Positions 101-10,478 of a stretch of 64,000 nucleotides of DNA are shown here, in pieces. The DNA is from Acidimicrobiaceae bacterium (GTDB lineage Bacteria; Actinomycetota; Acidimicrobiia; Acidimicrobiales; RAAP-2): assembly GCA_027451285.1 (NCBI GenBank), contig DAIDJP010000019.1, positions 9,041 through 73,040 of the forward strand. Direction: 5' to 3'. The position numbers and the translations under genes were made by a program. How positions within the stretch are numbered: position 1 is the first letter of the stretch; each line of letters starts with the position of its first letter. Under the pieces are notes generated by a model that made no database searches, was not told the origin of the DNA, and saw only the letters and a program-made list of their open reading frames with translations.

Positions 101-1105
101 GTGGCATCGGTTTCTGATCTGCGCGAGGATCCTCTCGTACGTTCTCTGCCCGTCGTGCGTCGTCGGCCCCTCACGTCACGCGTCTATCTCCCGGCCGTCT
201 CTCTCGCGCTCGTTGCCGCGGCCCTCGTCGTCGACGGGTGGGTGAGTCGCTGGGGCGGCGCCAACTTCGCCGCCTCGATGACGAGCCTGCGCGTCGTGCT
301 GGTCGGGCCAACGACGCTCCTCGTTCTGGCGATCTTCCTCGTCGTCGAGCGCCTTCGTCCCGCCCAGCGCCGGCCGATCTTCGCCCGAGGGTACCGCCAC
401 GACCTCCTTTACACCGTCTTGAACGCGACGGTGGTCGCGCCACTGGTGGTGGCGCTCTCGCTCTCGTTCGCCAGTGTCACCCGTCGAGCGATGCCCTGGG
501 TGGTGATGCCCCACGTCGCCACGGTGCCGCGTGGAATGGTGATCGCCCTGATCTTCGTGGCGATGGACGGCTGCAACTGGTTGGCGCACCTGGCCAATCA
601 CAAGGTCCAGGTGATGTGGCGCTTTCACGAGTTGCACCACTCCCAGGAGGACATGAGCGTCCTTACGGTCTTTCGCACCCATCCTCTCATCCACGTCTCC
701 TACCTCATCGCTCTCGTGCCCGGGATCGTGCTCGTGGCCAACGGCGCGGTACCCACGACGCTTCTCGTCGCCTACGGAGCCTTCGTCGCCTTCGAGCACT
801 CCAACACCAACCTTGGATTCGGGCCCCTCGAACGAATCTTCGTCAGCCCCAACTACCACCGGATCCACCATCGACTCGAAGGGCGTCAGGACGTCAACTT
901 GGGCTTCGCCCTCACCATTTGGGACCAGCTCTCTCATCGTTCGGTGTTCCCGAGTCCCGCGACGGTCCGCGCCGACACCGGGCTACCCGGGCGGCCTCTG
1001 CCGGTCGAGCAAGCCGGCGAACGGCCCCGACACGTCGCCACGTTGCTCGCTCAGCTCTGGGGACCGTTTCGTCCCCTCGAGCGCGTCGAGGGGCCCAGGT
1101 CGTGA
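101..1105 (+). CDS. Sterol desaturase / fatty acid hydroxylase superfamily membrane protein
   Basis: His boxes HLANH, HELHH, FEHSN and HRIHH plus hydrophobic helices. Start codon uncertain. Confidence 0.85.
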   Translation: MASVSDLREDPLVRSLPVVRRRPLTSRVYLPAVSLALVAAALVVDGWVSRWGGANFAASMTSLRVVLVGPTTLLVLAIFLVVERLRPAQRRPIFARGYRHDLLYTVLNATVVAPLVVALSLSFASVTRRAMPWVVMPHVATVPRGMVIALIFVAMDGCNWLAHLANHKVQVMWRFHELHHSQEDMSVLTVFRTHPLIHVSYLIALVPGIVLVANGAVPTTLLVAYGAFVAFEHSNTNLGFGPLERIFVSPNYHRIHHRLEGRQDVNLGFALTIWDQLSHRSVFPSPATVRADTGLPGRPLPVEQAGERPRHVATLLAQLWGPFRPLERVEGPRS

Positions 1106-1599
1106 CCATCTCGTCGGCCCAGCCATCACGCCTCAGACCTCTTGCACTCGTGCTGGGCGCATCACCGAGTCCCCTGGCGCGTGACGGCGCCCTCGTGGTG
1201 GCGCGCGCCGTGGTGGCGTGGATCTTCGTGTACTACGGCGCCGGCAAGCTTTTCGGTGCCTTTGGCGGGCCAGGCCTGCATCGCACCGCGCTCTACTTTT
1301 CTCAGACCGCGCACCTGCGCCCCGGCGGGCTGTTCGCGGTGGTGGGTGGGGTGATCGAGTTCGGGGGAGCTCTCGCGATCGCGCTCGGTCTCGTGTCGCG
1401 CGTGGCGGCGCTGGCGCTCCTGGGGGATCAGGTCATGGCGATCATCACCGTCACCTGGCACAACGGCATCAACTCTCTCAGCGCGACGCCCGGATACGAG
1501 TTCAACCTCACGCTCTGCGCCCTGTCGGTGGTCGTGATCGTGTTCGGCGCGGGACGACTGAGCCTCGACGCCGTCCTCGCGCGGAAGTTGCGCGCGTGA
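1102..1599 (+). CDS. DoxX family membrane protein
   Basis: C-terminal part of ORF 238..1599; GTG at 1102 overlaps the upstream TGA; motifs YGAGKLFG-FGG-G, EF-GALAIALG, G-GRLSLD. Confidence 0.85.
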   Translation: MTISSAQPSRLRPLALVLGASPSPLARDGALVVARAVVAWIFVYYGAGKLFGAFGGPGLHRTALYFSQTAHLRPGGLFAVVGGVIEFGGALAIALGLVSRVAALALLGDQVMAIITVTWHNGINSLSATPGYEFNLTLCALSVVVIVFGAGRLSLDAVLARKLRA

Positions 1600-2264
1600 G
1601 CGCGGCATCGGGGATTCTGCTCAGACGTCACCGCTTCCCGCCATCGAACGGTACGCGTCGACACCGGCTCGCCCGCGCGGGCGCGAATCTCACGGGCGCC
1701 ACGGGTGCCGCGTTCTTCGTTCGCGCCGGCCTCCAGCACTTCCTCGCCACCCGCTCGGCGATCGGCGCCGGCTTCGTCGTCGCCCAGGTGTGGGTGGTCA
1801 TCGCGTATCTGGTGCGCCGTCCGCCCACCGCGGTGACGACACGGGCGCGCCACTGGCTCGTGGCCTTCGGCGGAACCTTCGGCGGAGTACTCCTTCGACC
1901 GTCGGGCTGGCACAGTGCGCTCGGGGTCACCGTCGGCACGGTCCTCCAGGGTGGCGGACTCGTCCTCGCCGCGGCCGCCCTCGTCACCCTGGGTCGGTCT
2001 TTCGGCTTCGCGGCCGCGGATCGGGGACTCAAGGTCACGGGCCCCTACCGTGCGGTTCGCCATCCGCTCTACGGCGCCTACGTGCTCCTCCAGCTCGGGT
2101 ACCTCGCCCAGAGCGTCTCGGTCGCGAACGTCGCGATCGTCACGGTGGTCATCTCGTGCGATGTCGCGCGCGCCCTCGCCGAGGAGCAACTCCTCAAAGC
2201 CAACGCGACGTATCGTGACTACTGCGCCCGGGTGCCGTGGCGTTTGGTGCCGGGCCTGTGGTGA
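1596..2264 (+). CDS. Isoprenylcysteine carboxyl methyltransferase / PEMT-like membrane methyltransferase
   Basis: GTGA overlap with DoxX; motifs LGRSFG, TGPYRAVRHPLYGAY, EE-LL---Y-Y---V-WRLVPGLW. Confidence 0.8.
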   Translation: MSAASGILLRRHRFPPSNGTRRHRLARAGANLTGATGAAFFVRAGLQHFLATRSAIGAGFVVAQVWVVIAYLVRRPPTAVTTRARHWLVAFGGTFGGVLLRPSGWHSALGVTVGTVLQGGGLVLAAAALVTLGRSFGFAAADRGLKVTGPYRAVRHPLYGAYVLLQLGYLAQSVSVANVAIVTVVISCDVARALAEEQLLKANATYRDYCARVPWRLVPGLW

Positions 2265-2283
2265 GTCGACGTAGTCTCGCGAC

Positions 2284-2622
2284 GTGGCCTACGACGAGGT
2301 GCTCGCTAATCGGATCCGCGAGGTGATCGGCGCGCGCCGAGACCTGCGCGAGACGAAGATGTTCGGCGGGTTGGGCTTCCTCGTCGGTGGCCACCTGGCC
2401 GTGGCGGTGATGAGCGCGTCGCGCGGCATGATGGTGCGCGTCGATCCCACGAACCACGACGCGATGCGCGCCCAACGCGGTGCGGGACCCTTCGTGATGC
2501 GCGAACGCGAGATGCCCGGGTGGATCATCGTCGAGGCCGAGGCGCTACGTACGACGCGCGATCTCACACGCTGGGTGCGTCGGGGCCTCGCCTACGCGCA
2601 GTCCCTCCCGCCAAAGAGCTGA
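2284..2622 (+). CDS. TfoX/Sxy N-terminal domain protein
   Basis: MAYDEVLA-RIR, KMFGGLGFLVGG, M-GWIIV; leaderless -10 TAGTCT (2272-2277) 6 nt before the GTG. Confidence 0.8.
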   Translation: MAYDEVLANRIREVIGARRDLRETKMFGGLGFLVGGHLAVAVMSASRGMMVRVDPTNHDAMRAQRGAGPFVMREREMPGWIIVEAEALRTTRDLTRWVRRGLAYAQSLPPKS

Positions 2623-2638
2623 GCGGCCAACGGGTCGC

Positions 2639-2908
2639 CTACTTCGTGTGACCGACGTGCCAGCGAGCGCACGTGTCGCACTGGTAGACGCTCATCGGCG
2701 AACCGTCGCGGCTGAGACGATGGGCCTGGGCGAGGGCCGCCTCGCGTGTCGGATATCCCACCTTGGGCCGTCCCCTCGCGCTGGTGTGCGAACGGGGCCC
2801 GCGCTTTAAGGACGTGCCGGCGCGGTGGCGTCCGCCGTAGCGACTCGACCAGCGCAGCACGAGGGCGATCCCCGCGGCCGCGATGACCAGCACGATCCAG
2901 GCAGACAT
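2639..2908 (-). CDS. Small hypothetical protein: N-terminal TM helix and C-terminal CxxC-H-H putative zinc finger
   Basis: ATG at 2908 after GAGGGAG SD; ends VYQCDTCARWHVGHTK. Confidence 0.6.
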   Translation of the reverse strand: MSAWIVLVIAAAGIALVLRWSSRYGGRHRAGTSLKRGPRSHTSARGRPKVGYPTREAALAQAHRLSRDGSPMSVYQCDTCARWHVGHTK

Positions 2909-2995
2909 GAACGCTCCCTCTGACGCCTCGTGGCGCCGAGTTGTGAGACCTCTCACCGTATCGGGCTCGTCCGGGTCCGATACGGCGCGTGGCGA

Positions 2996-3772
2996 TCAGT
3001 AGTCGTTGACGTGGGTGACTTCCAGGTGGCGGCGCACGTCGCCGTGGGCGATCAGCAGTTCGACGCGCTCGCCGATGTCGTGGCGCCGCAGAGCGCCCTG
3101 GACGTCGGACACGCTCGTGACCGCCTCACCGTCGATCGCGAGCAGTCGATCGCCCGCGACGACGCCGGCGTCGGCGAGCTGGCTGGCGGGTCGCGGACGC
3201 TGCAGGTCGAATCCCTCGCGGGCGGGGTCGCCGTCTCGGTAGGAGAGGGTGGCAGCGGCGCCATGGCCCACGCTGACGCAGCCGCACGCTCCCAGGCTGC
3301 ACATCGGGCACACGCAGTGACAGTCGAGACCCGCGCCGGCGAGCTCGTCACTGACGAGACGGGCCAACCCTTCGGCGAGTTCGCTCGCGGCCTGCGCGGC
3401 CTCGTTGAGGTGACGGGGGGCGATCTCTCGCAGGCGCGGGTCGTAGAGGCGCAGCGACATCTCGAAGAGCGCCGCGTAGGCGATGGCGGCGTGCGAGTGC
3501 CGCGCGTACAGGGCGATGGCCGCGACCGACGCCGGGCCGGCGACGGCCACCGTGCTGCGTGGCGCGGGCGTTTCTTTGTTGGCGTCGTGATCCCCCGCGC
3601 GCAGGTACGCGTCGAGTGCGTCGAATCTCGCGCTCGCCCTCTCGGCAAGGTGCTCGGGCATGGTCGCTACGACGTGCTCGTCGAGAGATCCGAGGTACGT
3701 GAGGATCTCGCCCTCGACGCCGCGCAGGCTCGCGACGCTCGCGGCGAGTAGGGCGGTGCGTGCATCGGTCAT
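2996..3772 (-). CDS. Ferritin-like (DUF892-like) helical domain + hexa-Cys motif + C-terminal PDZ domain
   Basis: AGGGGAAG SD; CHCVCPMCSLGACGC; PDZ signature S-LADAGVVAGDRLLAIDGEAV. Ferritin-like call is weaker. Confidence 0.7.
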   Translation of the reverse strand: MTDARTALLAASVASLRGVEGEILTYLGSLDEHVVATMPEHLAERASARFDALDAYLRAGDHDANKETPAPRSTVAVAGPASVAAIALYARHSHAAIAYAALFEMSLRLYDPRLREIAPRHLNEAAQAASELAEGLARLVSDELAGAGLDCHCVCPMCSLGACGCVSVGHGAAATLSYRDGDPAREGFDLQRPRPASQLADAGVVAGDRLLAIDGEAVTSVSDVQGALRRHDIGERVELLIAHGDVRRHLEVTHVNDY

Positions 3773-3828
3773 GACTTCCCCCTTTGGCGATTACCTCACT
3801 GTGCGCGAGCCACCGATCGCGGGATTAG

Positions 3829-4596
3829 CTAGATGGCACCCGAGAGACCGCCGTCGACGCTGATGCCCACGCCCGTGACGTAGGACGCGCGCGGCGAGAG
3901 TAGGAACGTGGCCACGTTGGCGAACTCGGCGGCAGTACCGATGCGACCGAGGGGGATTCCCGCGCGGCTGGCCATCTCGCGGTAGAACTCGTCGAGGTCG
4001 CGCTTGGCCTCGGCGGCTCGGCGCACCCACTGACCCGACTCGATCAGACCGATCAGGATCGCGTTCACGCGCACGCCGCGCGAGCCCACTTCGTGCGAGA
4101 GCGCCTTCGTGAGAGCCAGCCCGGCCGCGCGCGAGGCGGCCGTGGGCGTCGAGTTGGGCGGCGGCGTGCGCGCCATGATCGCGAGCACGTTGAGGATCGA
4201 ACCGTGAGTCTCTTCGAGCGCGGGCAACGCCCGGCGTGACAGGTGCAACGCGGCGATGACCTTGAGCTCGTAGTCCGCCCGCCAGGCTTCGTCGGTCGAA
4301 GTCGCCACCGAGGAGGCGGCGCTGCGTCCGGCGTTGTTGACGACGCCGTCGATGCGTCCGAAGCGCGCGAGAGCCACGTCGTAGAACTCGTCGAGCGCGG
4401 TGGCGTCGGTGACGTCGGCCTCGACGCACAGGGCCTCGGGGCCAAGGCTCTCCTGGGCGAGGGAGAGGCGCTGGGGGTCGCGTCCGCACACCGCCACGCG
4501 CGCGCCCTCGGCGAGCAGGCTGGTGGCCAAGGCCATGCCCAGGCCGTCGGTGCCTCCGGTGATGAGAAAGGCTCGGTTGTCCAGTTCTAGGTCCAT
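3829..4596 (-). CDS. SDR family oxidoreductase
   Basis: ITGGTDGLG, NNAG, GVRVNAI; leaderless -10 TAGGAT. Confidence 0.9.
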   Translation of the reverse strand: MDLELDNRAFLITGGTDGLGMALATSLLAEGARVAVCGRDPQRLSLAQESLGPEALCVEADVTDATALDEFYDVALARFGRIDGVVNNAGRSAASSVATSTDEAWRADYELKVIAALHLSRRALPALEETHGSILNVLAIMARTPPPNSTPTAASRAAGLALTKALSHEVGSRGVRVNAILIGLIESGQWVRRAAEAKRDLDEFYREMASRAGIPLGRIGTAAEFANVATFLLSPRASYVTGVGISVDGGLSGAI

Positions 4597-4624
4597 GGAC
4601 TCATCCTAGAAACGTCCCCGAACG

Positions 4625-4660
4625 CACGACGGCCCGGCTCTGGCGAGCCGGGCCGTCGTG
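4625..4660 (-). terminator. Intrinsic terminator hairpin after the cytochrome b module
   Basis: Perfect 16-bp stem CACGACGGCCCGGCTC / GAGCCGGGCCGTCGTG with a 4-nt loop, 6 nt past the stop at 4667. Confidence 0.8.
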
Positions 4661-4666
4661 GTCGGA

Positions 4667-5608
4667 TTAGTTGCGGTAGTGCTCTCGCCAGATCAGTCGG
4701 TAGACCTTGACCTTGCGCGGGATCGCCCGCAGGCCCGGGATCAGCGGCAAGAAGAGCAGGATGACCGACAGGAGCATCATCGTGGCCCAGACCTGGACGT
4801 CGGCGTTGGCACTCGTGGAGAACGGCGACACTTGGTACCAGAAGGTGTAGAGCCACAGCCACGCCTGACCCGGGTAGCTGTTCGTCTCGTTCATCATGCC
4901 CCACTGGCTGCCCAGGAGGTGCTGCTTCTCGGCGAGCTGCGCGAGGTAGCCGCCGTCGGAGAGGAACAAGAGGGGCTTCGTGTAGTCCATCGAGAAGAAG
5001 TTCCCGCCCTGGACGAGCGCCGTGTCCAGCGCGCCGGAACGCGCCATCGCGGTGAGGTCGTTGATGAACACGGGCACGGGACCGGCGTTGGACGCGTTCA
5101 CCGCGATCTGGCCGTTCTTGAAAGTCATCGTCGAGTCGGCCTTGGTGTAGTTGTTGACCCAGGTCGTCTGCTGGCTGGTCGACGCCGACTTCCACGTGGA
5201 CAGCGCGCTCGAGAGCTGCGCGTTGTAGGGCAGCGACTCGAGGGGCCCCAACACGAAGTCCTGCTCGGTGTTGATCGGGATGCGCACGCCCACCCACTTG
5301 GCCAGCGTGAGCGGACCGAGCTTCTGGCCGTCACTCGCCGTGTTGTAGGGCGCTCCGTAGCCGGCCGTGGTCGTCGTGCCGTTCATCTCATTGATGGCGG
5401 TCATCGCGAAGTCGGTGGGTGCGGCGTTGGCCCAGTTCTTGATGGTGATCTCGTGGTCGTCCGGCGCGCCGAAGAGGGTGGCCAGGATGACGGTGAGCAG
5501 TCCCACGACCACCAGGGCGATCGTGCCCTCCTTGATGATGTCGTAGGGGCTGTGACCGCCCTTCCACTCCGGGGCGTCGACGTCGGGACGGAATGCCTTG
5601 GAACTCAC
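4667..5608 (-). CDS. Cytochrome b partner subunit (subunit IV-like ends, large extracytoplasmic insert; no CxxCH)
   Basis: N-terminal PYDIIKEG plus TM helix, about 200-aa polar domain, C-terminal TM helix; start overlaps the cyt b stop. Confidence 0.6.
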   Translation of the reverse strand: MSSKAFRPDVDAPEWKGGHSPYDIIKEGTIALVVVGLLTVILATLFGAPDDHEITIKNWANAAPTDFAMTAINEMNGTTTTAGYGAPYNTASDGQKLGPLTLAKWVGVRIPINTEQDFVLGPLESLPYNAQLSSALSTWKSASTSQQTTWVNNYTKADSTMTFKNGQIAVNASNAGPVPVFINDLTAMARSGALDTALVQGGNFFSMDYTKPLLFLSDGGYLAQLAEKQHLLGSQWGMMNETNSYPGQAWLWLYTFWYQVSPFSTSANADVQVWATMMLLSVILLFLPLIPGLRAIPRKVKVYRLIWREHYRN

Positions 5609-6228
5609 TGTGCTTCACCAACCTTGTCTTCGTAGGGGGGGACGACGCCCTTGATGCGCACGAGCAGGACGTGCAGGGCGGTGAGGACGACCGCGGCGAG
5701 CGGCAGCAGGACGATGTGCCACATGAGCATCTGGCCGAGGTTGAGCACGTTGAAGAACGCGCCGGCTCCCGTCGAGTTGATGCCGTCCTTGGCCTGGGTG
5801 GTGATCCACTGGGAGTCGAAGTTGCTCTGGGAGGCGTAGCCGGTGAACGCGGTGGCGATCGAGGCGAGGAACGTGACTACCCCCGTCATCCACGTCGCGG
5901 TGCGACCGCCGCGCCAGGCGCCCATGAAGAACTTGCCCCACAGGTGCACCACCATGGCGAAGAAGAAGATCTCCACGCTCCACAGGTGCAGTGAGTTCAC
6001 GAAGTGCCCGATCGAGGACTCGTGCCACCACTGCGGTCCGCGCAGCGCGAGGATCAGCCCGGAGCCGATGACGACCGCGAGCGCGGACATGGTCGTTACG
6101 CCGAAGACGTAGATCCACGACGAGACGTAGGCCGGCTGGGTGTCCGGCAGGAGCTTCTCCGGGGGCAGCTTGCCGGCGACCCTGCGGCGCAGGCGAGTGG
6201 TCCACTGCTGGTCGATGCTGGTGCTCAC
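5605..6228 (-). CDS. Cytochrome b6-like (cytochrome b N-terminal domain, four heme His)
   Basis: SLHLWS, VHLWGKF, WHIVLLP, LHVLLVRIKG give the four b-heme ligands; also W-TGV and FTGY. Confidence 0.9.
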   Translation of the reverse strand: MSTSIDQQWTTRLRRRVAGKLPPEKLLPDTQPAYVSSWIYVFGVTTMSALAVVIGSGLILALRGPQWWHESSIGHFVNSLHLWSVEIFFFAMVVHLWGKFFMGAWRGGRTATWMTGVVTFLASIATAFTGYASQSNFDSQWITTQAKDGINSTGAGAFFNVLNLGQMLMWHIVLLPLAAVVLTALHVLLVRIKGVVPPYEDKVGEAQ

Positions 6229-6407
6229 TTGCTCTCCTTTCGGCGGTTACGCCCGGGGAAGGGCAGAAGCAGGGCCGCGATGAATGTGACGACCATCAGG
6301 ACTATGACGATGAAGTTGGCCACACTGATGTTGATGACACCCCAGTGCAGATAGTGGCCGTAGCCATCGAGCGGTATCAGCGCCGCTAGGAAAGAAAACC
6401 ACGCCAT
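6225..6407 (-). CDS. Small membrane protein, first gene of the cytochrome b module
   Basis: 60 aa, GHYLHWGVINISVAN plus one TM helix ending LPFPG; stop overlaps the cyt b start. Confidence 0.65.
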   Translation of the reverse strand: MAWFSFLAALIPLDGYGHYLHWGVINISVANFIVIVLMVVTFIAALLLPFPGRNRRKESK

Positions 6408-6473
6408 AGATATCCCATTTCTCCGATCTCATGGTGCTGGACCCAGTGTGGCACGTCATTGCGGAGAACTACC

Positions 6474-6489
6474 AGGGCCTAAAGCCCCC
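6474..6489. promoter_or_regulatory. DosR/DevR/OsdR-like imperfect palindrome
   Basis: AGGGCCTAAAGCCCCC resembles the GGGACTAAAGTCCC-type consensus; about 70 nt upstream of the cyt b module. Confidence 0.4.
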
Positions 6490-6506
6490 GCCTATCGTCC
6501 CTGATC

Positions 6507-7475
6507 CTAAGCCTTTGCGCTAGAGAAGGAAGGAATTGGATTTTCGACCTTCGGCGCGCGACGGGTGCCGGGCTCGCGGTCGTGCGCGCTCTGGCGCAGG
6601 TGGAACTGCGTGACGCCGATCGACAGCGAGATCGCGCCGGCCACGTGCAGCTCGACGAGGACGACCGGCACGTGGGTGAGGTACTGGGTCACGCCGATGG
6701 CCGCCTGGACGAGTGAGATCACGACGAGGCGGCGCACGCCGTGCTGGAGGGCGAGCGGCGCGCTCGAGCCCCAGATCGCAAAGACCAATCCCGTCACCAG
6801 ACCGATGAAGAGGACCGCGGCGACCGAGTGGACCCACGCGGCGTCGGCGAAGGCGAAGGGCAGGCGCCGCGCGACCAGCTGGCCCTGGGAGCCACCGGCG
6901 TGCGGTCCCGATCCCGTGGCGATGGTGCCGGTGGCGAGCAGCACCACGAAGGGGATCCACAAAAGCCGCGCGATCAGGCGAAAGTGTGGGTCGCGCACGT
7001 CGCAGCGCGCGCCGGGCCCGTAGACGTACTTGGAGCGGTGATAGAGGATCGCGCCCACGACGACCATGGAGAGCGAGAGAATCATGTGCAGTGAGACGAG
7101 CCACGGGTTGAGCTTGGAGTAGACGACGAAGGCGCCGAGGATCGCGTCGGCGACGACGCCGGCGATCAGCAGCCCCGAGAGGACGAGCAGATCGCGACGG
7201 CGCACCTCGCGCAGCCACGCGGCGATGAAGGTGGCGATCGCGACCAGGATGAGCGTGACCGTGACGATGCGGTTCGCGTACTCGATGAGCGGGTGGATCG
7301 ACCACGACCCCGCGATGCGGTGGTGATAGCAAGTGGGCCAGTCCGGACAGCCCAGGCCCGAACCGGTGAGGCGCACGGCCGCTCCGGTCAGGACTATCAC
7401 GATCATCGAGACGAAGGAGGCGAGCGCGAACCAGCGAAAGACGGGGATCGTCACACGTCGGCGAGTTCCGGTCAT
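6507..7475 (-). CDS. ctaA: Heme A synthase (COX15/CtaA family)
   Basis: TGAAVRLTGSGLGCPDWPTC, EYANR, VSLHM, WVHS, LHVAGA; leaderless -10 TAGGCT. Confidence 0.9.
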   Translation of the reverse strand: MTGTRRRVTIPVFRWFALASFVSMIVIVLTGAAVRLTGSGLGCPDWPTCYHHRIAGSWSIHPLIEYANRIVTVTLILVAIATFIAAWLREVRRRDLLVLSGLLIAGVVADAILGAFVVYSKLNPWLVSLHMILSLSMVVVGAILYHRSKYVYGPGARCDVRDPHFRLIARLLWIPFVVLLATGTIATGSGPHAGGSQGQLVARRLPFAFADAAWVHSVAAVLFIGLVTGLVFAIWGSSAPLALQHGVRRLVVISLVQAAIGVTQYLTHVPVVLVELHVAGAISLSIGVTQFHLRQSAHDREPGTRRAPKVENPIPSFSSAKA

Positions 7476-7516
7476 TTTCGTAGCCTAGGGAAGGACCGAC
7501 TCATAGAATGCTCCCC

Positions 7517-8431
7517 ATGACAATCTCGGCCACGAGCCCTCGCTCGACCTCGGACGTGGTCAAGGGATACGTCGCCCTCACCAAGCCGCGCATCATTGAA
7601 CTCCTGCTCGTCACCACGGTGCCCACGATGGTAGTGGCGGCCAATGGCATCCCCAGTCTGTGGCTGATCGTCACGACGCTGATCGGCGGCACGCTGGCCG
7701 CCGGCGGGGCGAACGCCTTCAACATGGTGATCGACCGCGACATCGACGCGGTGATGCAGCGCACCAAGCGCCGTCCGCTGGTGACCGGCGTGATGACCCC
7801 GCGCGCCGCGACCGTCTTCGCGGCCGCCCTCGAGATCGTCTCCTTCGCGGTGCTCTCGACGTGGGTCAACCCGCTGTCGGCGTGGCTCGCGCTCTCGGCC
7901 ACCGCGTTCTACGTCTTCGTCTACACGATGTGGCTCAAGCGGCGCTCCAAGCAGAACATCGTGATCGGCGGCGCGGCCGGCGCGGTGCCGGTGCTGGTGG
8001 GCTGGGCCGCGGTGACCAACTCGCTCACCTGGACGCCGGTGCTGCTCTTCGCCGTCATCTTCATCTGGACGCCGCCGCACTTCTGGGCGCTCGCGGTGCG
8101 CTACCGCGATGACTACGAGGCGGCCAACGTGCCGATGATGCCGGTGGTGGCCTCCTTGCGGCGCACGACGCTCGAGATCCTGGTCTATTCGGTCGTCCTG
8201 TGGGCGATCACGATGCTGATCGGTCCCTTCGCCCACTTGGGCTGGATCTACGCGCTGGCCTCGACGGTGCTGGGCGCACTGTTCTCCTTCTACGCGCTGC
8301 GCCTCTATCGCCACGCGGCCTCCAACAAGGCCGACGTTGCCGAGGCCATGCGGCTCTTCCACTTCTCCATCACGTACCTGACGGCCCTCTTCGTGTTCAT
8401 GGCGGTTGACGTCCTTGTCCGATTCCACTAG
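7517..8431 (+). CDS. ctaB: Heme O synthase (protoheme IX farnesyltransferase)
   Basis: LTKPRII, DRDIDAVMQRTKRRPL, WTPPHFWALA; ATG 7517 lies 7 nt after TAGAAT. Confidence 0.95.
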   Translation: MTISATSPRSTSDVVKGYVALTKPRIIELLLVTTVPTMVVAANGIPSLWLIVTTLIGGTLAAGGANAFNMVIDRDIDAVMQRTKRRPLVTGVMTPRAATVFAAALEIVSFAVLSTWVNPLSAWLALSATAFYVFVYTMWLKRRSKQNIVIGGAAGAVPVLVGWAAVTNSLTWTPVLLFAVIFIWTPPHFWALAVRYRDDYEAANVPMMPVVASLRRTTLEILVYSVVLWAITMLIGPFAHLGWIYALASTVLGALFSFYALRLYRHAASNKADVAEAMRLFHFSITYLTALFVFMAVDVLVRFH

Positions 8432-8453
8432 TCCGCGGCGGCGACCGTCGCCG

Positions 8454-8999
8454 ATGGCCCTGCTGTCGCTCGGACTGGGGGTGACGATCGCGCTCGTGCT
8501 GATCCTGACCGTGTCGTTCCTCACCAACGGCCGCTCCCCGGGCGCGTCGAGCACGACGACGCCGATCGCGACGACCGAGCTCGTCGGCAAGACGCTCAAG
8601 GGATTTTCCAGTCCGGGTCTCTTCGGTGGCACGGTGACGTCACCGTGGACCAGCGGGCATCCGACGGTCGTGATCTTCTTCGCCTCGTGGTGCGGCCCGT
8701 GTCAGGGCGAGATGCCCAAGGTCGCCGCCTACCTGCACGCCCACCACACGGGGGACGTGCGCGTGGTGGGCGTCGACGCGAACGATGAGCAGTCCGCGGC
8801 GAAGGCCTTCGTCACCAAGGACAAGGTGGGCTTTCCCGTCGCCTTTGACGCCAACGGGACGGTCACCAACGGGCTCTTCCAGTTCCTCACCCTGCCCGAA
8901 ACGGTGTTCCTCACCGCCCGGGGCAAGGTGACCAACGTCTACTTCGGGGCGATCCCGACCGACAAGCTCGCCCAGGGCATCGCGGCGCTCTCGGCGTAG
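8454..8999 (+). CDS. TlpA/ResA-like membrane-anchored thiol-disulfide oxidoreductase
   Basis: N-terminal TM helix; FFASWCGPCQGEMP; LPETVF. Confidence 0.85.
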   Translation: MALLSLGLGVTIALVLILTVSFLTNGRSPGASSTTTPIATTELVGKTLKGFSSPGLFGGTVTSPWTSGHPTVVIFFASWCGPCQGEMPKVAAYLHAHHTGDVRVVGVDANDEQSAAKAFVTKDKVGFPVAFDANGTVTNGLFQFLTLPETVFLTARGKVTNVYFGAIPTDKLAQGIAALSA

Positions 9000-9068: not shown

Positions 9069-10478
9069 ATGCGTACGTTGAGGTTGAAGAGCGTCGTCGG
9101 CGTGGCGGTAGCCCTGGCGGTGCTGACGACCCCGGTCGCGGCGATGGCGGGACCCGTCCTCAGGGTTGGTTCGACGACGCAGATCAGCTCGTGTGCGGGA
9201 CCCAACGCCGAGCCCGTCTCGGCGGTGGACGGTCGCTACGTCTACGTCGCCTGGATCGGCTGCGCGTCGGCCACGACCAACATCGCGGTGGCCACGTCCT
9301 CCGATGGCGGCGCCACGTTCGGCGCGCCCGTTCTCATCTCGCCCTCTCCCTCGAGCTGGGATCCGACTCTGGCGGTGGGGCCCGACCACCACGTCTATCT
9401 CGTCTACATGGTGGGCCACGTGTCCTGCGTCTTCACCACGTGTTCGAGTGTGGCGGTGACCTCACCGTACGTGGCGGTCTCCACCGACCACGGCGCGAGC
9501 TTCTCGGCGGGCCAACCCCTCTATCAGCCGGTGGCGCCGACGACGTCGAACTTCGCGGACCGGCCCTTCGTCGCGATCGCGCCGGACGGGACGATCGCCG
9601 TGAGCTACGACTTCGGTCCGGGCACCGCTCCCTATAGCCTCCTGTGCGCGAAGGGTCAGAGTTGCTCGTTCGCCGCGGGCCAGTACAACGCCGTGGTCCA
9701 GGTCTCGCGTGACGGCGGGGCGACGTGGAGCAACCAGATCCCCATCGACCCGCGATACCCGGTCGGTGGCGAGTGGTCGGCGGCCCTCGTCGCCGAACCC
9801 AACGACACGTTCGATGCACTGATGTGGGACCATCTCACCGAACCCACGACCTACGCGATGTCCTCGGGTCCGATCACCTTCAGCCACTCCGGTGTGGACG
9901 GTCTGACCTGGACGACCCCGAGCCTCGTCAACGCCGCGCCCATCCCCCTGACCACGTGGTGGGTCGACGGGTCGATCGGCATCGACGCGGGCGGCACGCT
10001 CTACGCCGCCTGGGACGCGCAGGGAGTCGGCGGTGACACCCCCTACCTCGCCTACTCGACCAACGACGGCCAGTCCTGGTCGACGCCGATCGCGATGGCA
10101 CCTGGTTCGAACGCCAGTCACCTCGTCGAGGTCGTGGGCGGTGCGCCGGGGACCGCGTATCTGGCCATGCAGACGGGCGACGCGATGGGTTATCGCACGA
10201 AGGTGGCGGGATTTTCCGTCTCCACGCTTCGCCTCTCGCCGTGGAAGACGGTGTCGCCGACTCTCTACGACCCTTCCGTGTGGCCCGGCGACACGCTCGG
10301 TCTCACGTATCGTGGCGCGACGGGCACGTCAGCCCACCTCTTCGTCTACTGGGGTGGCGCGCTGATGGATTCGGGCTCGAGCGAGATCTGGGGTTCGTCG
10401 GTCAACGTGGTCCTTCGGAAGTCGCGTTTGCCCCGGGAACTTAACCAGTATGTGTGCCACATTCATATCCCACGTTGA
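9069..10478 (+). CDS. Secreted BNR/Asp-box (sialidase-like beta-propeller) protein
   Basis: Signal peptide; Asp boxes SSDGGATF, STDHGASF, SRDGGATW, STNDGQSW. Confidence 0.75.
   Translation: MRTLRLKSVVGVAVALAVLTTPVAAMAGPVLRVGSTTQISSCAGPNAEPVSAVDGRYVYVAWIGCASATTNIAVATSSDGGATFGAPVLISPSPSSWDPTLAVGPDHHVYLVYMVGHVSCVFTTCSSVAVTSPYVAVSTDHGASFSAGQPLYQPVAPTTSNFADRPFVAIAPDGTIAVSYDFGPGTAPYSLLCAKGQSCSFAAGQYNAVVQVSRDGGATWSNQIPIDPRYPVGGEWSAALVAEPNDTFDALMWDHLTEPTTYAMSSGPITFSHSGVDGLTWTTPSLVNAAPIPLTTWWVDGSIGIDAGGTLYAAWDAQGVGGDTPYLAYSTNDGQSWSTPIAMAPGSNASHLVEVVGGAPGTAYLAMQTGDAMGYRTKVAGFSVSTLRLSPWKTVSPTLYDPSVWPGDTLGLTYRGATGTSAHLFVYWGGALMDSGSSEIWGSSVNVVLRKSRLPRELNQYVCHIHIPR

Follow-up and report, generated by a model that had tools for sequence, protein, structure and literature searches.

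A compact three-gene module at 4667-6407 on the minus strand of a 64-kb stretch of DNA from an Acidimicrobiaceae bacterium (contig DAIDJP010000019.1; the whole stretch is hereafter called the window) combines a dihaem cytochrome b with a single-helix small subunit and a cysteine-free partner subunit, and is accompanied by neither a Rieske protein nor a cytochrome c. This holds both for the window and for 97 related loci from four phyla, taken with 10 kb on either side and amounting with the window to 1.73 Mb, which bears out the original prediction of a non-canonical dihaem cytochrome b module devoid of these two partners. Cytochromes b of the bc type are nearly always discussed as parts of a Rieske-dependent Q cycle: the module is a compact and highly conserved form of them without Rieske or cytochrome c. 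Our preferred reading, held tentatively and at a little less than an even chance, is that it constitutes a stand-alone dihaem transmembrane electron relay, which would have kept the inner quinone site while the outer one has been rebuilt and capped, and which would not be a Q-cycle enzyme. The elements of the module are:

6225-6407, minus strand: small subunit gene, 60 amino acids (aa); open reading frame (ORF) call
5605-6228, minus strand: cytochrome b gene, 207 aa; ORF call, Pfam PF13631 and PF00033
4667-5608, minus strand: partner subunit gene, 313 aa, Cys-free; ORF call, no Pfam, NCBIfam or PDB sequence match
4617-4666, minus strand: hairpin directly 3' of the partner stop codon; folding energy against shuffles

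The three ORFs were confirmed with the lengths and positions first given for them. They run head-to-tail, and both of their junctions are GTGA start/stop overlaps, by virtue of which the genes are translationally coupled. Their G+C fraction at third codon positions (0.93-0.94) is as for genuine genes in a genome of 65-70% G+C. The partner gene is followed by a hairpin with a perfect 16-bp G+C-rich stem and a 4-nt loop (-44.9 kcal/mol, z = -6.3, equalled by 0 of 200 shuffles). No U-tract lies behind the stem, the tail reading CGUUCGGGGACGUUUC, and a consensus terminator scan passed over the site because the T-run is missing. Thus, of the strong terminator that was thought to close the unit, the stable G+C-rich hairpin right after the stop codon stands and the U-run does not: the structure probably acts as a hairpin-only terminator of the actinobacterial kind.

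Wherever a related locus extends far enough upstream (about 90 of 97), the three genes stand side by side. Several lineages join the cytochrome b and the partner into one chain (e.g. P0127, L044, L072), and over 120 protein clusters of 579-663 aa represent triple fusions in the gene order small peptide-cytochrome b-partner, two of these clusters being from metagenome-assembled genomes (MAGs) labelled Streptosporangiaceae. These natural fusions, as well as the hypoxia-type regulator and stress islands described below, did not figure in the original prediction. The cytochrome b/partner junction is also spanned by a contig of a relative from a mine-drainage metatranscriptome (short contigs, 90-95% identity). 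Since they are always adjacent and repeatedly fused in gene order, the three proteins belong together, and the genes are predicted to encode one unit, in the form of a small membrane complex: adjacency, GTGA overlaps and fusions all speak for the single unit that had been proposed. The small subunit possesses one membrane helix, with the N-terminus outside and a basic C-terminus inside, and a conserved motif of the form G(H/R)YxHW...S.AN...PFPGR; its homologues lie upstream of the cytochrome b gene in 55 loci. His21 of this peptide was considered as a haem ligand and rejected, as it is replaced in several members.

The 207-aa protein is a b6-like four-helix dihaem domain, which scores above the Pfam gathering cut-offs for PF13631 (53.8 bits; cut-off 27) and PF00033 (33.6 bits; cut-off 27.2). 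Among solved structures it is closest to cytochrome b6 chains and then to actinobacterial QcrB, and the family profile matches cytochrome b6 over the whole four-helix domain (E = 5.5e-17). H81/H95 (H-x13-H) and H171/H186 (H-x14-H) show the ligand spacing of the b6 pattern and fall on the four haem ligands when aligned to solved b6 structures; these histidines, on helices B and D, are invariant in 20 of 20 family members from four phyla. The position of the haem-ci cysteine is taken by Val41 (IYVFGV), with the family consensus 'iyVfG' falling on the 'fyClGG' of b6; no family member has a Cys there, and only the first Gly of CxGG is kept. Profile alignment to real b6 chains accordingly upholds the earlier observation of four haem histidines with a Val in place of the haem-ci Cys. 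The NCBIfam scores are far under the respective cut-offs for b6 (NF002990; 50.1 bits against 325), ExtP (NF040969; 49 against 290), QcrB (28 against 500) and SoxC (26 against 740), which places the protein outside these named families. The outer cd loop, which in canonical enzymes is the hydrophobic wall of the Qo pocket, is polar and invariant in the family (Q140, W141, Q145, D148, N151, N160 and Q166). A third cofactor site formed by His69 and His75 of the outer AB loop was also considered and discarded, as these residues are absent in the members from Sulfobacillus, L096 and L100.

The search for canonical redox partners was negative across the window and 10 kb on either side of the homologues. 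No ORF of the 64-kb window contains a CxxCH or a Rieske-type CxH...CxxH motif. A motif scan of the called genes of 86 loci returned no Rieske-type motif, and CxxCH motifs there are scattered and non-conserved. Phmmer searches with three real Rieske and two cytochrome c1 queries gave 0 matches in the 20,992 ORFs of the window and the 97 loci, and recovered exactly one cytochrome b per locus. The module would have been an ordinary one had its homologues consistently stood beside a Rieske or cytochrome c gene: none of the 97 related loci shows this. Nor did full-text literature searches return any description or characterization of the module, whose partner subunit is 'hypothetical' in the source databases.

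The partner subunit has no Cys and four His, none of them conserved, and displays two hydrophobic stretches (23-51 and 269-297). Its elements are in order: an N-terminus on the cytoplasmic side that contains PYDxxKE; helix 1 (~24-47); an all-alpha domain on the outside, ~200 aa long (~55-235); the membrane-proximal QWGxMNExxSYPGQAWLWLYTFWYQ, with PGQAWLW at 246-252; helix 2 (~269-293); a basic cytoplasmic tail. The outer segment between the two helices measures ~220 aa and is mostly a folded helical domain. The features first ascribed to this protein, namely transmembrane ends, an outer insert (then put at about 200 aa), PGQAWLW and the lack of Cys, are therefore all present. Motifs conserved family-wide include PYDxxKE before helix 1, SPD after it, YGPPYN, DFVxxPL, QWGxxNExxxYPGQxWLWxYTxWYQ, NAD, PFIPGLRxIP and YRLIWR. 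Neither Cys nor His appears among the conserved residues, nor does any Met that is kept family-wide, and for this reason the insert cannot replace a Rieske or cytochrome c as a redox carrier; the earlier suggestion that it might do so is abandoned, and at most it may, going by these residues, fill the space of such a partner.

The partner family is absent from Pfam and NCBIfam, and by sequence nothing resembling it is found in PDB: there is no Pfam match at E <= 10 in 21 members, nor in 5 distant ones, and the family profile finds nothing in PDB at E <= 10. An AlphaFold2 (AF2) model of the partner (mean predicted local distance difference test score, pLDDT, of 71) features a confident all-alpha domain at ~55-200 (pLDDT 85-95). 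Residues 236-251, although conserved, are modelled with low confidence and probably fold only in contact with their neighbours. A Foldseek search with the partner-only model yields no match below E = 3 in PDB; the modelled cap fold would hence be one without a PDB counterpart, and with PDB as the sole comparison we do not claim a new fold.

The Qo motif P-[E/D/V/P/A]-W-[Y/F], of which the known variants are given in PMC4122944, is not found in the partner at the start of the ef helix. PGQAWLW had been proposed to stand in place of PEWY: the absence of PEWY is confirmed, while the register of its equivalent is ambiguous between P246...W250 (YPGQAW) and T255-F-W-Y258. The first is favored by the AF2 model, in which the ef helix starts at A249/W250, and by P246, G247 and W250 being the most conserved residues; the second is preferred by hhalign. 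Neither register offers an acidic residue at the position of the Glu/Asp of PEWY/PDWY, the closest conserved carboxylates being E241 and D270.

In the mechanism that we propose, the complex would descend from a split cytochrome b6/subunit IV pair and would have left the Rieske/cytochrome b enzyme class. Its cytochrome b keeps both bis-His haem sites, stacked across the membrane. The two helices of the partner would be the equivalents of helices E and F of cytochrome b/subunit IV, and in its PYDxxKE the Lys-acid pair of the quinone site on the cytoplasmic side (Qi/Qn) is likely to be preserved: K26-E27 aligns with Lys-Asp of the Qi site, and a b6-like Arg follows the last haem ligand. The Qo pocket appears to have been rebuilt, with YPGQxW...WYQ in the place of the PEWY glutamate, and the helical domain in the ef loop would roof this pocket where a Rieske head would otherwise dock. 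Given an outer site that is rebuilt and roofed in this manner, a bifurcating Q cycle would be impossible. Electrons would travel one at a time over the two haems, in one direction or the other, linking menaquinone/menaquinol at the site on the cytoplasmic side to the remodelled site at the outer face, which would accept either another quinone or some small hydrophilic donor or acceptor. In this the complex would resemble the dihaem subunits FdnI, NarI or CybB more than complex III.

Several points weigh against this proposal. Rieske and c-type cytochrome genes may lie elsewhere in these genomes; the cap over the Rieske docking site is deduced from topology and not seen in coordinates; and quinone binding, haem type and activity are all predictions from sequence. 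Moreover, a relay between quinones alone across both faces would be futile, and therefore an additional partner or substrate must exist. The kinship of the partner with subunit IV meets its own objections: PF00032 (subunit IV/cytochrome b C-terminal) has no match at E <= 10 in the 21 members; hhalign gives the partner family a probability of 18% against PetD (an approximate sequence) and of 0.6% against four real plasmid-borne full-length cytochromes b, neither being significant; and the AF2 model of a fused homologue is mediocre (pLDDT 62, predicted TM-score 0.53), with Foldseek TM-scores of just 0.21-0.28. On the other side, the partner is encoded right after the b6-like domain with a GTGA overlap, or is fused behind it (P0127, P0126 and the >120 clusters). 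The weak matches also fall at the appropriate places: that to PetD, an approximate query, puts WY and helix 2 of the partner on the WY of PEWY and helix F, and that to the plasmid-borne proteins puts PY..KE and helix 1 on PY...KD and helix E. Foldseek ranks full-length QcrB and cytochrome b first for the fused model (probability 0.99, ~510 aligned columns), a model that we use for the order of matched segments alone, since a pLDDT of 62 is too low for claims on interfaces. Genuine actinobacterial QcrB C-terminal halves likewise escape profile hidden Markov models (HMMs; Kao and Hunte, PMC4122944). Weak sequence statistics, gene and fusion order and the Foldseek result taken together make it likely, though unproven, that the partner is homologous to subunit IV or the C-terminal half of cytochrome b. 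The 'subunit IV-like' ends of the original prediction thus cannot be demonstrated by sequence statistics, and agree with gene and fusion order and with the positions of the weak matches.

A word-indexed search assigns more than 7000 proteins to the partner family, each either unnamed or called 'hypothetical', and at 50% identity the family forms 897 clusters; a genome scan with a 6-sequence alignment places it in at least 600 GTDB species. It is distributed over Actinomycetota, Bacillota, Chloroflexota and Bacteroidota. The actinobacterial members are from Acidimicrobiales (soil, peat), Amycolatopsis, Actinocrinis, Solirubrobacteraceae and Streptosporangiaceae; the remainder include Sulfobacillus acidophilus, a Chloroflexota-labelled group and a Bacteroidota contig with a Por secretion-tail gene. 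Inside the clade of the window the cytochrome b is 80-100% identical. The closest relatives of the window are Acidimicrobiales MAGs, and DNA near-identical to its positions 4300-8600 is found mostly in mine-drainage metagenomes and also in those from soil, sediment and aquifer: judging by these habitats, the source organism is probably an acid-tolerant member of the Acidimicrobiales. Culturable strains carry the module (Sulfobacillus acidophilus, Amycolatopsis orientalis DSM 43388 and Actinocrinis puniceicyclus DSM 45618), which puts its haem type, partners and activity within direct experimental reach. A fourth small ORF of 69-86 aa, which may encode an extra subunit, overlaps or abuts the partner stop codon in Sulfobacillus and further distant lineages; it is not present in the window, where the hairpin follows the partner at once. 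Its copies are:

L091, 10968-11177: fourth small ORF
L093, 9002-9253: fourth small ORF
L096, 8996-9229: fourth small ORF
L100, 2716-2937: fourth small ORF
L101, 8977-9237: fourth small ORF

Among the alternatives to a stand-alone relay, the one that survives best, and that we nonetheless consider unlikely, is a link to haem A: the complex would exchange electrons for CtaA or for oxidase biogenesis, or else its bis-His sites would carry haem A or O and not haem B, as a bacterial counterpart of the archaeal haem-A cytochrome b homologues ('ba complexes') of acidophiles. This notion stems from the genes upstream of the module, which in the window are:

6507-7475, minus strand: ctaA (haem A synthase), same-strand upstream neighbour, outside the core unit; Pfam PF02628
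7508-8431, plus strand: ctaB (haem O synthase), divergent from ctaA; NCBIfam NF003349, 413 bits against a cut-off of 246
8406-8999, plus strand: TlpA/ResA-like thioredoxin gene, overlapping ctaB, with a WCGPC motif; Pfam AhpC-TSA/Redoxin

The ctaA gene lies directly upstream of the small ORF on the same strand, across a 99-nt spacer without significant structure (fold z = +0.9). This constitutes the first of two recurrent contexts, seen in 19 of the 71 loci of at least 12 kb, all of them from the clade of the window: serS, an ABC transporter and tlpA-ctaB, with ctaA-small-cytb-partner running divergently. Beyond the module there are often CtaG and DUF2252 genes, CtaG being nearby in 9 loci. 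In Sulfobacillus acidophilus, which belongs to another phylum, the module is again found immediately downstream of ctaA, and it is this recurrence that makes the link worth testing. The Sulfobacillus CtaA is merely 27-29% identical to that of the window, as against 43% for its cytochrome b; a recent block transfer, which we considered, is for that reason unlikely, and an ancient co-transfer is possible. The presence of the window's DNA in mine-drainage metagenomes, the weak NCBIfam match to SoxC and the precedent of haem A in bc-type cytochromes of acidophiles (PMC12808453, PMC10669018) point in the same direction. Conversely, 52 of the 71 long loci are not situated by ctaA, nor are the members from Chloroflexota, Bacteroidota, Amycolatopsis and Streptosporangiaceae; in Sulfobacillus ~400 nt and a terminator-like hairpin part ctaA from the module; and the linkage within the Acidimicrobiales could be inherited synteny. 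Furthermore, to our knowledge most bacteria that make haem A do so without the module, which therefore is no general requirement of CtaA. Hence, the haem A/O neighbourhood to which the original prediction drew attention is real, and it characterizes one clade plus Sulfobacillus rather than the family at large. The adjacency touches on a long-standing gap, the electron donor of bacterial CtaA, and raises the question of whether haem A is present in bc-type cytochromes of bacteria, as it is in acidophilic archaea.

Further genes around the module in the window deserve mention. After tlpA comes an inserted gene (9069-10478, plus strand) for a 469-aa BNR/sialidase-like repeat protein with a signal-like N-terminus; the related loci, unlike the window, have the ABC transporter genes directly after tlpA. 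Two genes downstream of the module (2996-3772, minus strand) is one for a 258-aa protein with a C-terminal PDZ domain and the Cys-rich stretch CHCVCPMCSLGACGC, which by its composition could be a metal- or redox-related site.

Distinctly less probable than a haem A link is that an ordinary Rieske/cytochrome b complex has its cytochrome b core encoded in the module and its Rieske and cytochrome c elsewhere in the genome. The span inspected was 20 kb around each homologue, the four haem ligands are kept together with a W-Y pair near the ef helix, and according to Dibrova et al. (PMC5600118) Rieske genes of other lineages are not always located by the cytochrome b genes. Yet 97 loci from four phyla offer 0 Rieske or cytochrome c1 neighbours; the cd loop is polar, the Qo-motif position lacks an acidic residue, and ~220 aa are inserted in the ef loop. 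The gene contexts also argue against it: the loci outside the two recurrent contexts are variable, with MFS transporters, methyltransferases or, in Amycolatopsis, cas1/cas2 beside the module, which behaves as a self-contained cassette moving into unrelated contexts. Actinomycetes such as Amycolatopsis are moreover expected to carry the canonical qcrCAB as well, which again counts against this alternative. Kao and Hunte (PMC4122944) counted 613 full-length actinobacterial QcrB proteins.

The second recurrent context, in 12 other loci of the 71, is made up of GAF-HisKA_3 kinases and LuxR-type response regulators (the DevS/DevR architecture), along with universal stress proteins (USPs), PNPOx-like proteins, phosphoketolase and acetate kinase, and PfkB. 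In L101 the HisKA_3 kinase and a GerE regulator are directly upstream of the module, in L100 a GerE regulator is nearby, and in the Chloroflexota-type contigs L093-L095 USP genes flank the module on both sides. The weakest alternative, a hypoxia- or stress-induced device for sensing the quinone pool or balancing redox, for instance by signalling to a neighbouring NarL-type two-component system, and not for energy conservation, draws on these islands and is very improbable, as they make up a minority of the loci and gather a host of unrelated genes, the module is not fused to any sensor output domain, and induction under hypoxia is a proposal from gene context alone. It concerns the physiological role and is as such compatible with the mechanism set out above; the ctaA and hypoxia-type contexts together suggest that the module serves to remodel or maintain the aerobic respiratory chain as the oxygen supply changes. 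Iron or metal redox as a general function, which the original prediction had raised as speculation, is rejected on habitat and taxon spread, the family being common in soil and peat Acidimicrobiales, Amycolatopsis, Streptosporangiaceae, Solirubrobacteraceae, Chloroflexota and Bacteroidota, and no metal-ligand motif is conserved.

Two other redox proteins were observed in loci of the distant members. L093-L095 encode, at 1015-2814 (minus strand) and 5 kb from the module, a 599-aa MsrQ-MsrP-like fusion of a Ni_hydr_CYTB-type cytochrome b (PF01292) to a molybdopterin oxidoreductase (PF00174). L100 encodes, at 6041-7324, a 427-aa membrane protein with a weak COX1-like match (PF00115, E = 1e-4), among DUF2249 genes and a few kb from the module copy.

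Plasmids were searched as well. With the partner as query, tblastn matched none of 72,556 plasmids, and a plasmid search with the cytochrome b of the module recovered only canonical or orphan cytochrome b genes. One of these, at 2171-3811 of the locus L089 (Streptomyces sp. NBC_01334 plasmid NZ_CP130719.1), is a lone gene, annotated 'ubiquinol-cytochrome c reductase cytochrome b subunit' and coding for 546 aa. Its start is overlapped by a hypothetical ORF of 103 aa, and there is no Rieske or cytochrome c gene within 2.5 kb. About 15 large Streptomyces plasmids have cytochrome b genes matching the same query segment, most of them annotated alike. The lone L089 gene represents a second kind of orphan cytochrome b among Actinomycetota, distinct from the module.

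Returning to the dihaem relay without a Q cycle, we further entertain, as a doubtful extension, that the module represents an unrecognized class of respiratory membrane enzyme in at least four phyla: a b6/subunit IV derivative that gave up Rieske, and in which the new outer domain and cd loop would provide a catalytic or docking site for a non-quinone substrate or for CtaA/oxidase, a site coupled across the membrane to the menaquinone pool, with haem A perhaps being used in the ctaA-linked acidophiles. Families such as this would be missed in published surveys of cytochrome b evolution, because unpaired N-terminal domains are set aside in them.

The module can be compared with several known systems. 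The b6-subunit IV pair of the b6f complex and the Bacillus-type QcrB/QcrC are, like it, split pairs: a ~210-aa four-helix dihaem protein, followed by a gene for the C-terminal helices. With b6 and subunit IV it shares the H-x13-H and H-x14-H spacing, the Arg five residues past the last haem ligand and the best sequence match to a solved structure. It differs from them in the loss of the haem-ci Cys (CxGG to VFGV), of PEWY/PDWY, of Rieske and of cytochrome f/c, and in a partner with two helices instead of three and a ~220-aa ef-loop segment. The Geobacter Cbc-type and ExtP quinol dehydrogenases also use a b6-like dihaem protein without Rieske, and ExtP, at 49 bits, scores on par with b6. Those complexes work with periplasmic multihaem c-type cytochromes encoded alongside, whereas no CxxCH protein accompanies the module. 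SoxC/SoxG and the Acidianus 'ba complex' are comparable as acidophile bc-type cytochromes b tied to the supply of haem A, which is here represented by the ctaA neighbours; in archaea, the SoxC/SoxG-type cytochromes b are long chains and have Rieske proteins as working partners. FdnI, NarI and CybB offer a functional analogy only, their folds and families being unrelated: two stacked haems, one quinone site and a single-electron relay to or from the other face. No match to them in sequence or structure emerged, none having been looked for. Of these, CybB, the cytochrome b561 superoxide oxidase, functions with no further redox subunit.

Actinobacterial QcrB of the bcc-aa3 supercomplex, from the same phylum as the window, is the best Foldseek match of the fused homologue (8ovc_H, probability 0.99), and like the partner it has a C-terminal half that is invisible to profile HMMs (PMC4122944). 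It is, however, a single chain of ~540 aa with PDWY, encoded in ctaE-qcrCAB with the Rieske protein QcrA and the dihaem QcrC, and the module has neither such neighbours nor such a motif. Dibrova et al. (PMC5600118) list cytochrome b domains that lie outside Rieske operons and whose functions are 'yet to be established'; their subfamily K lost one haem ligand, in contrast to the family of the module, which keeps all four. The 600-aa fusions could represent their subfamily H. The cytochrome b superfamily and its Rieske-less uses are already known, and it is this subunit composition, the outer domain and the gene contexts for which the literature searches gave no description.

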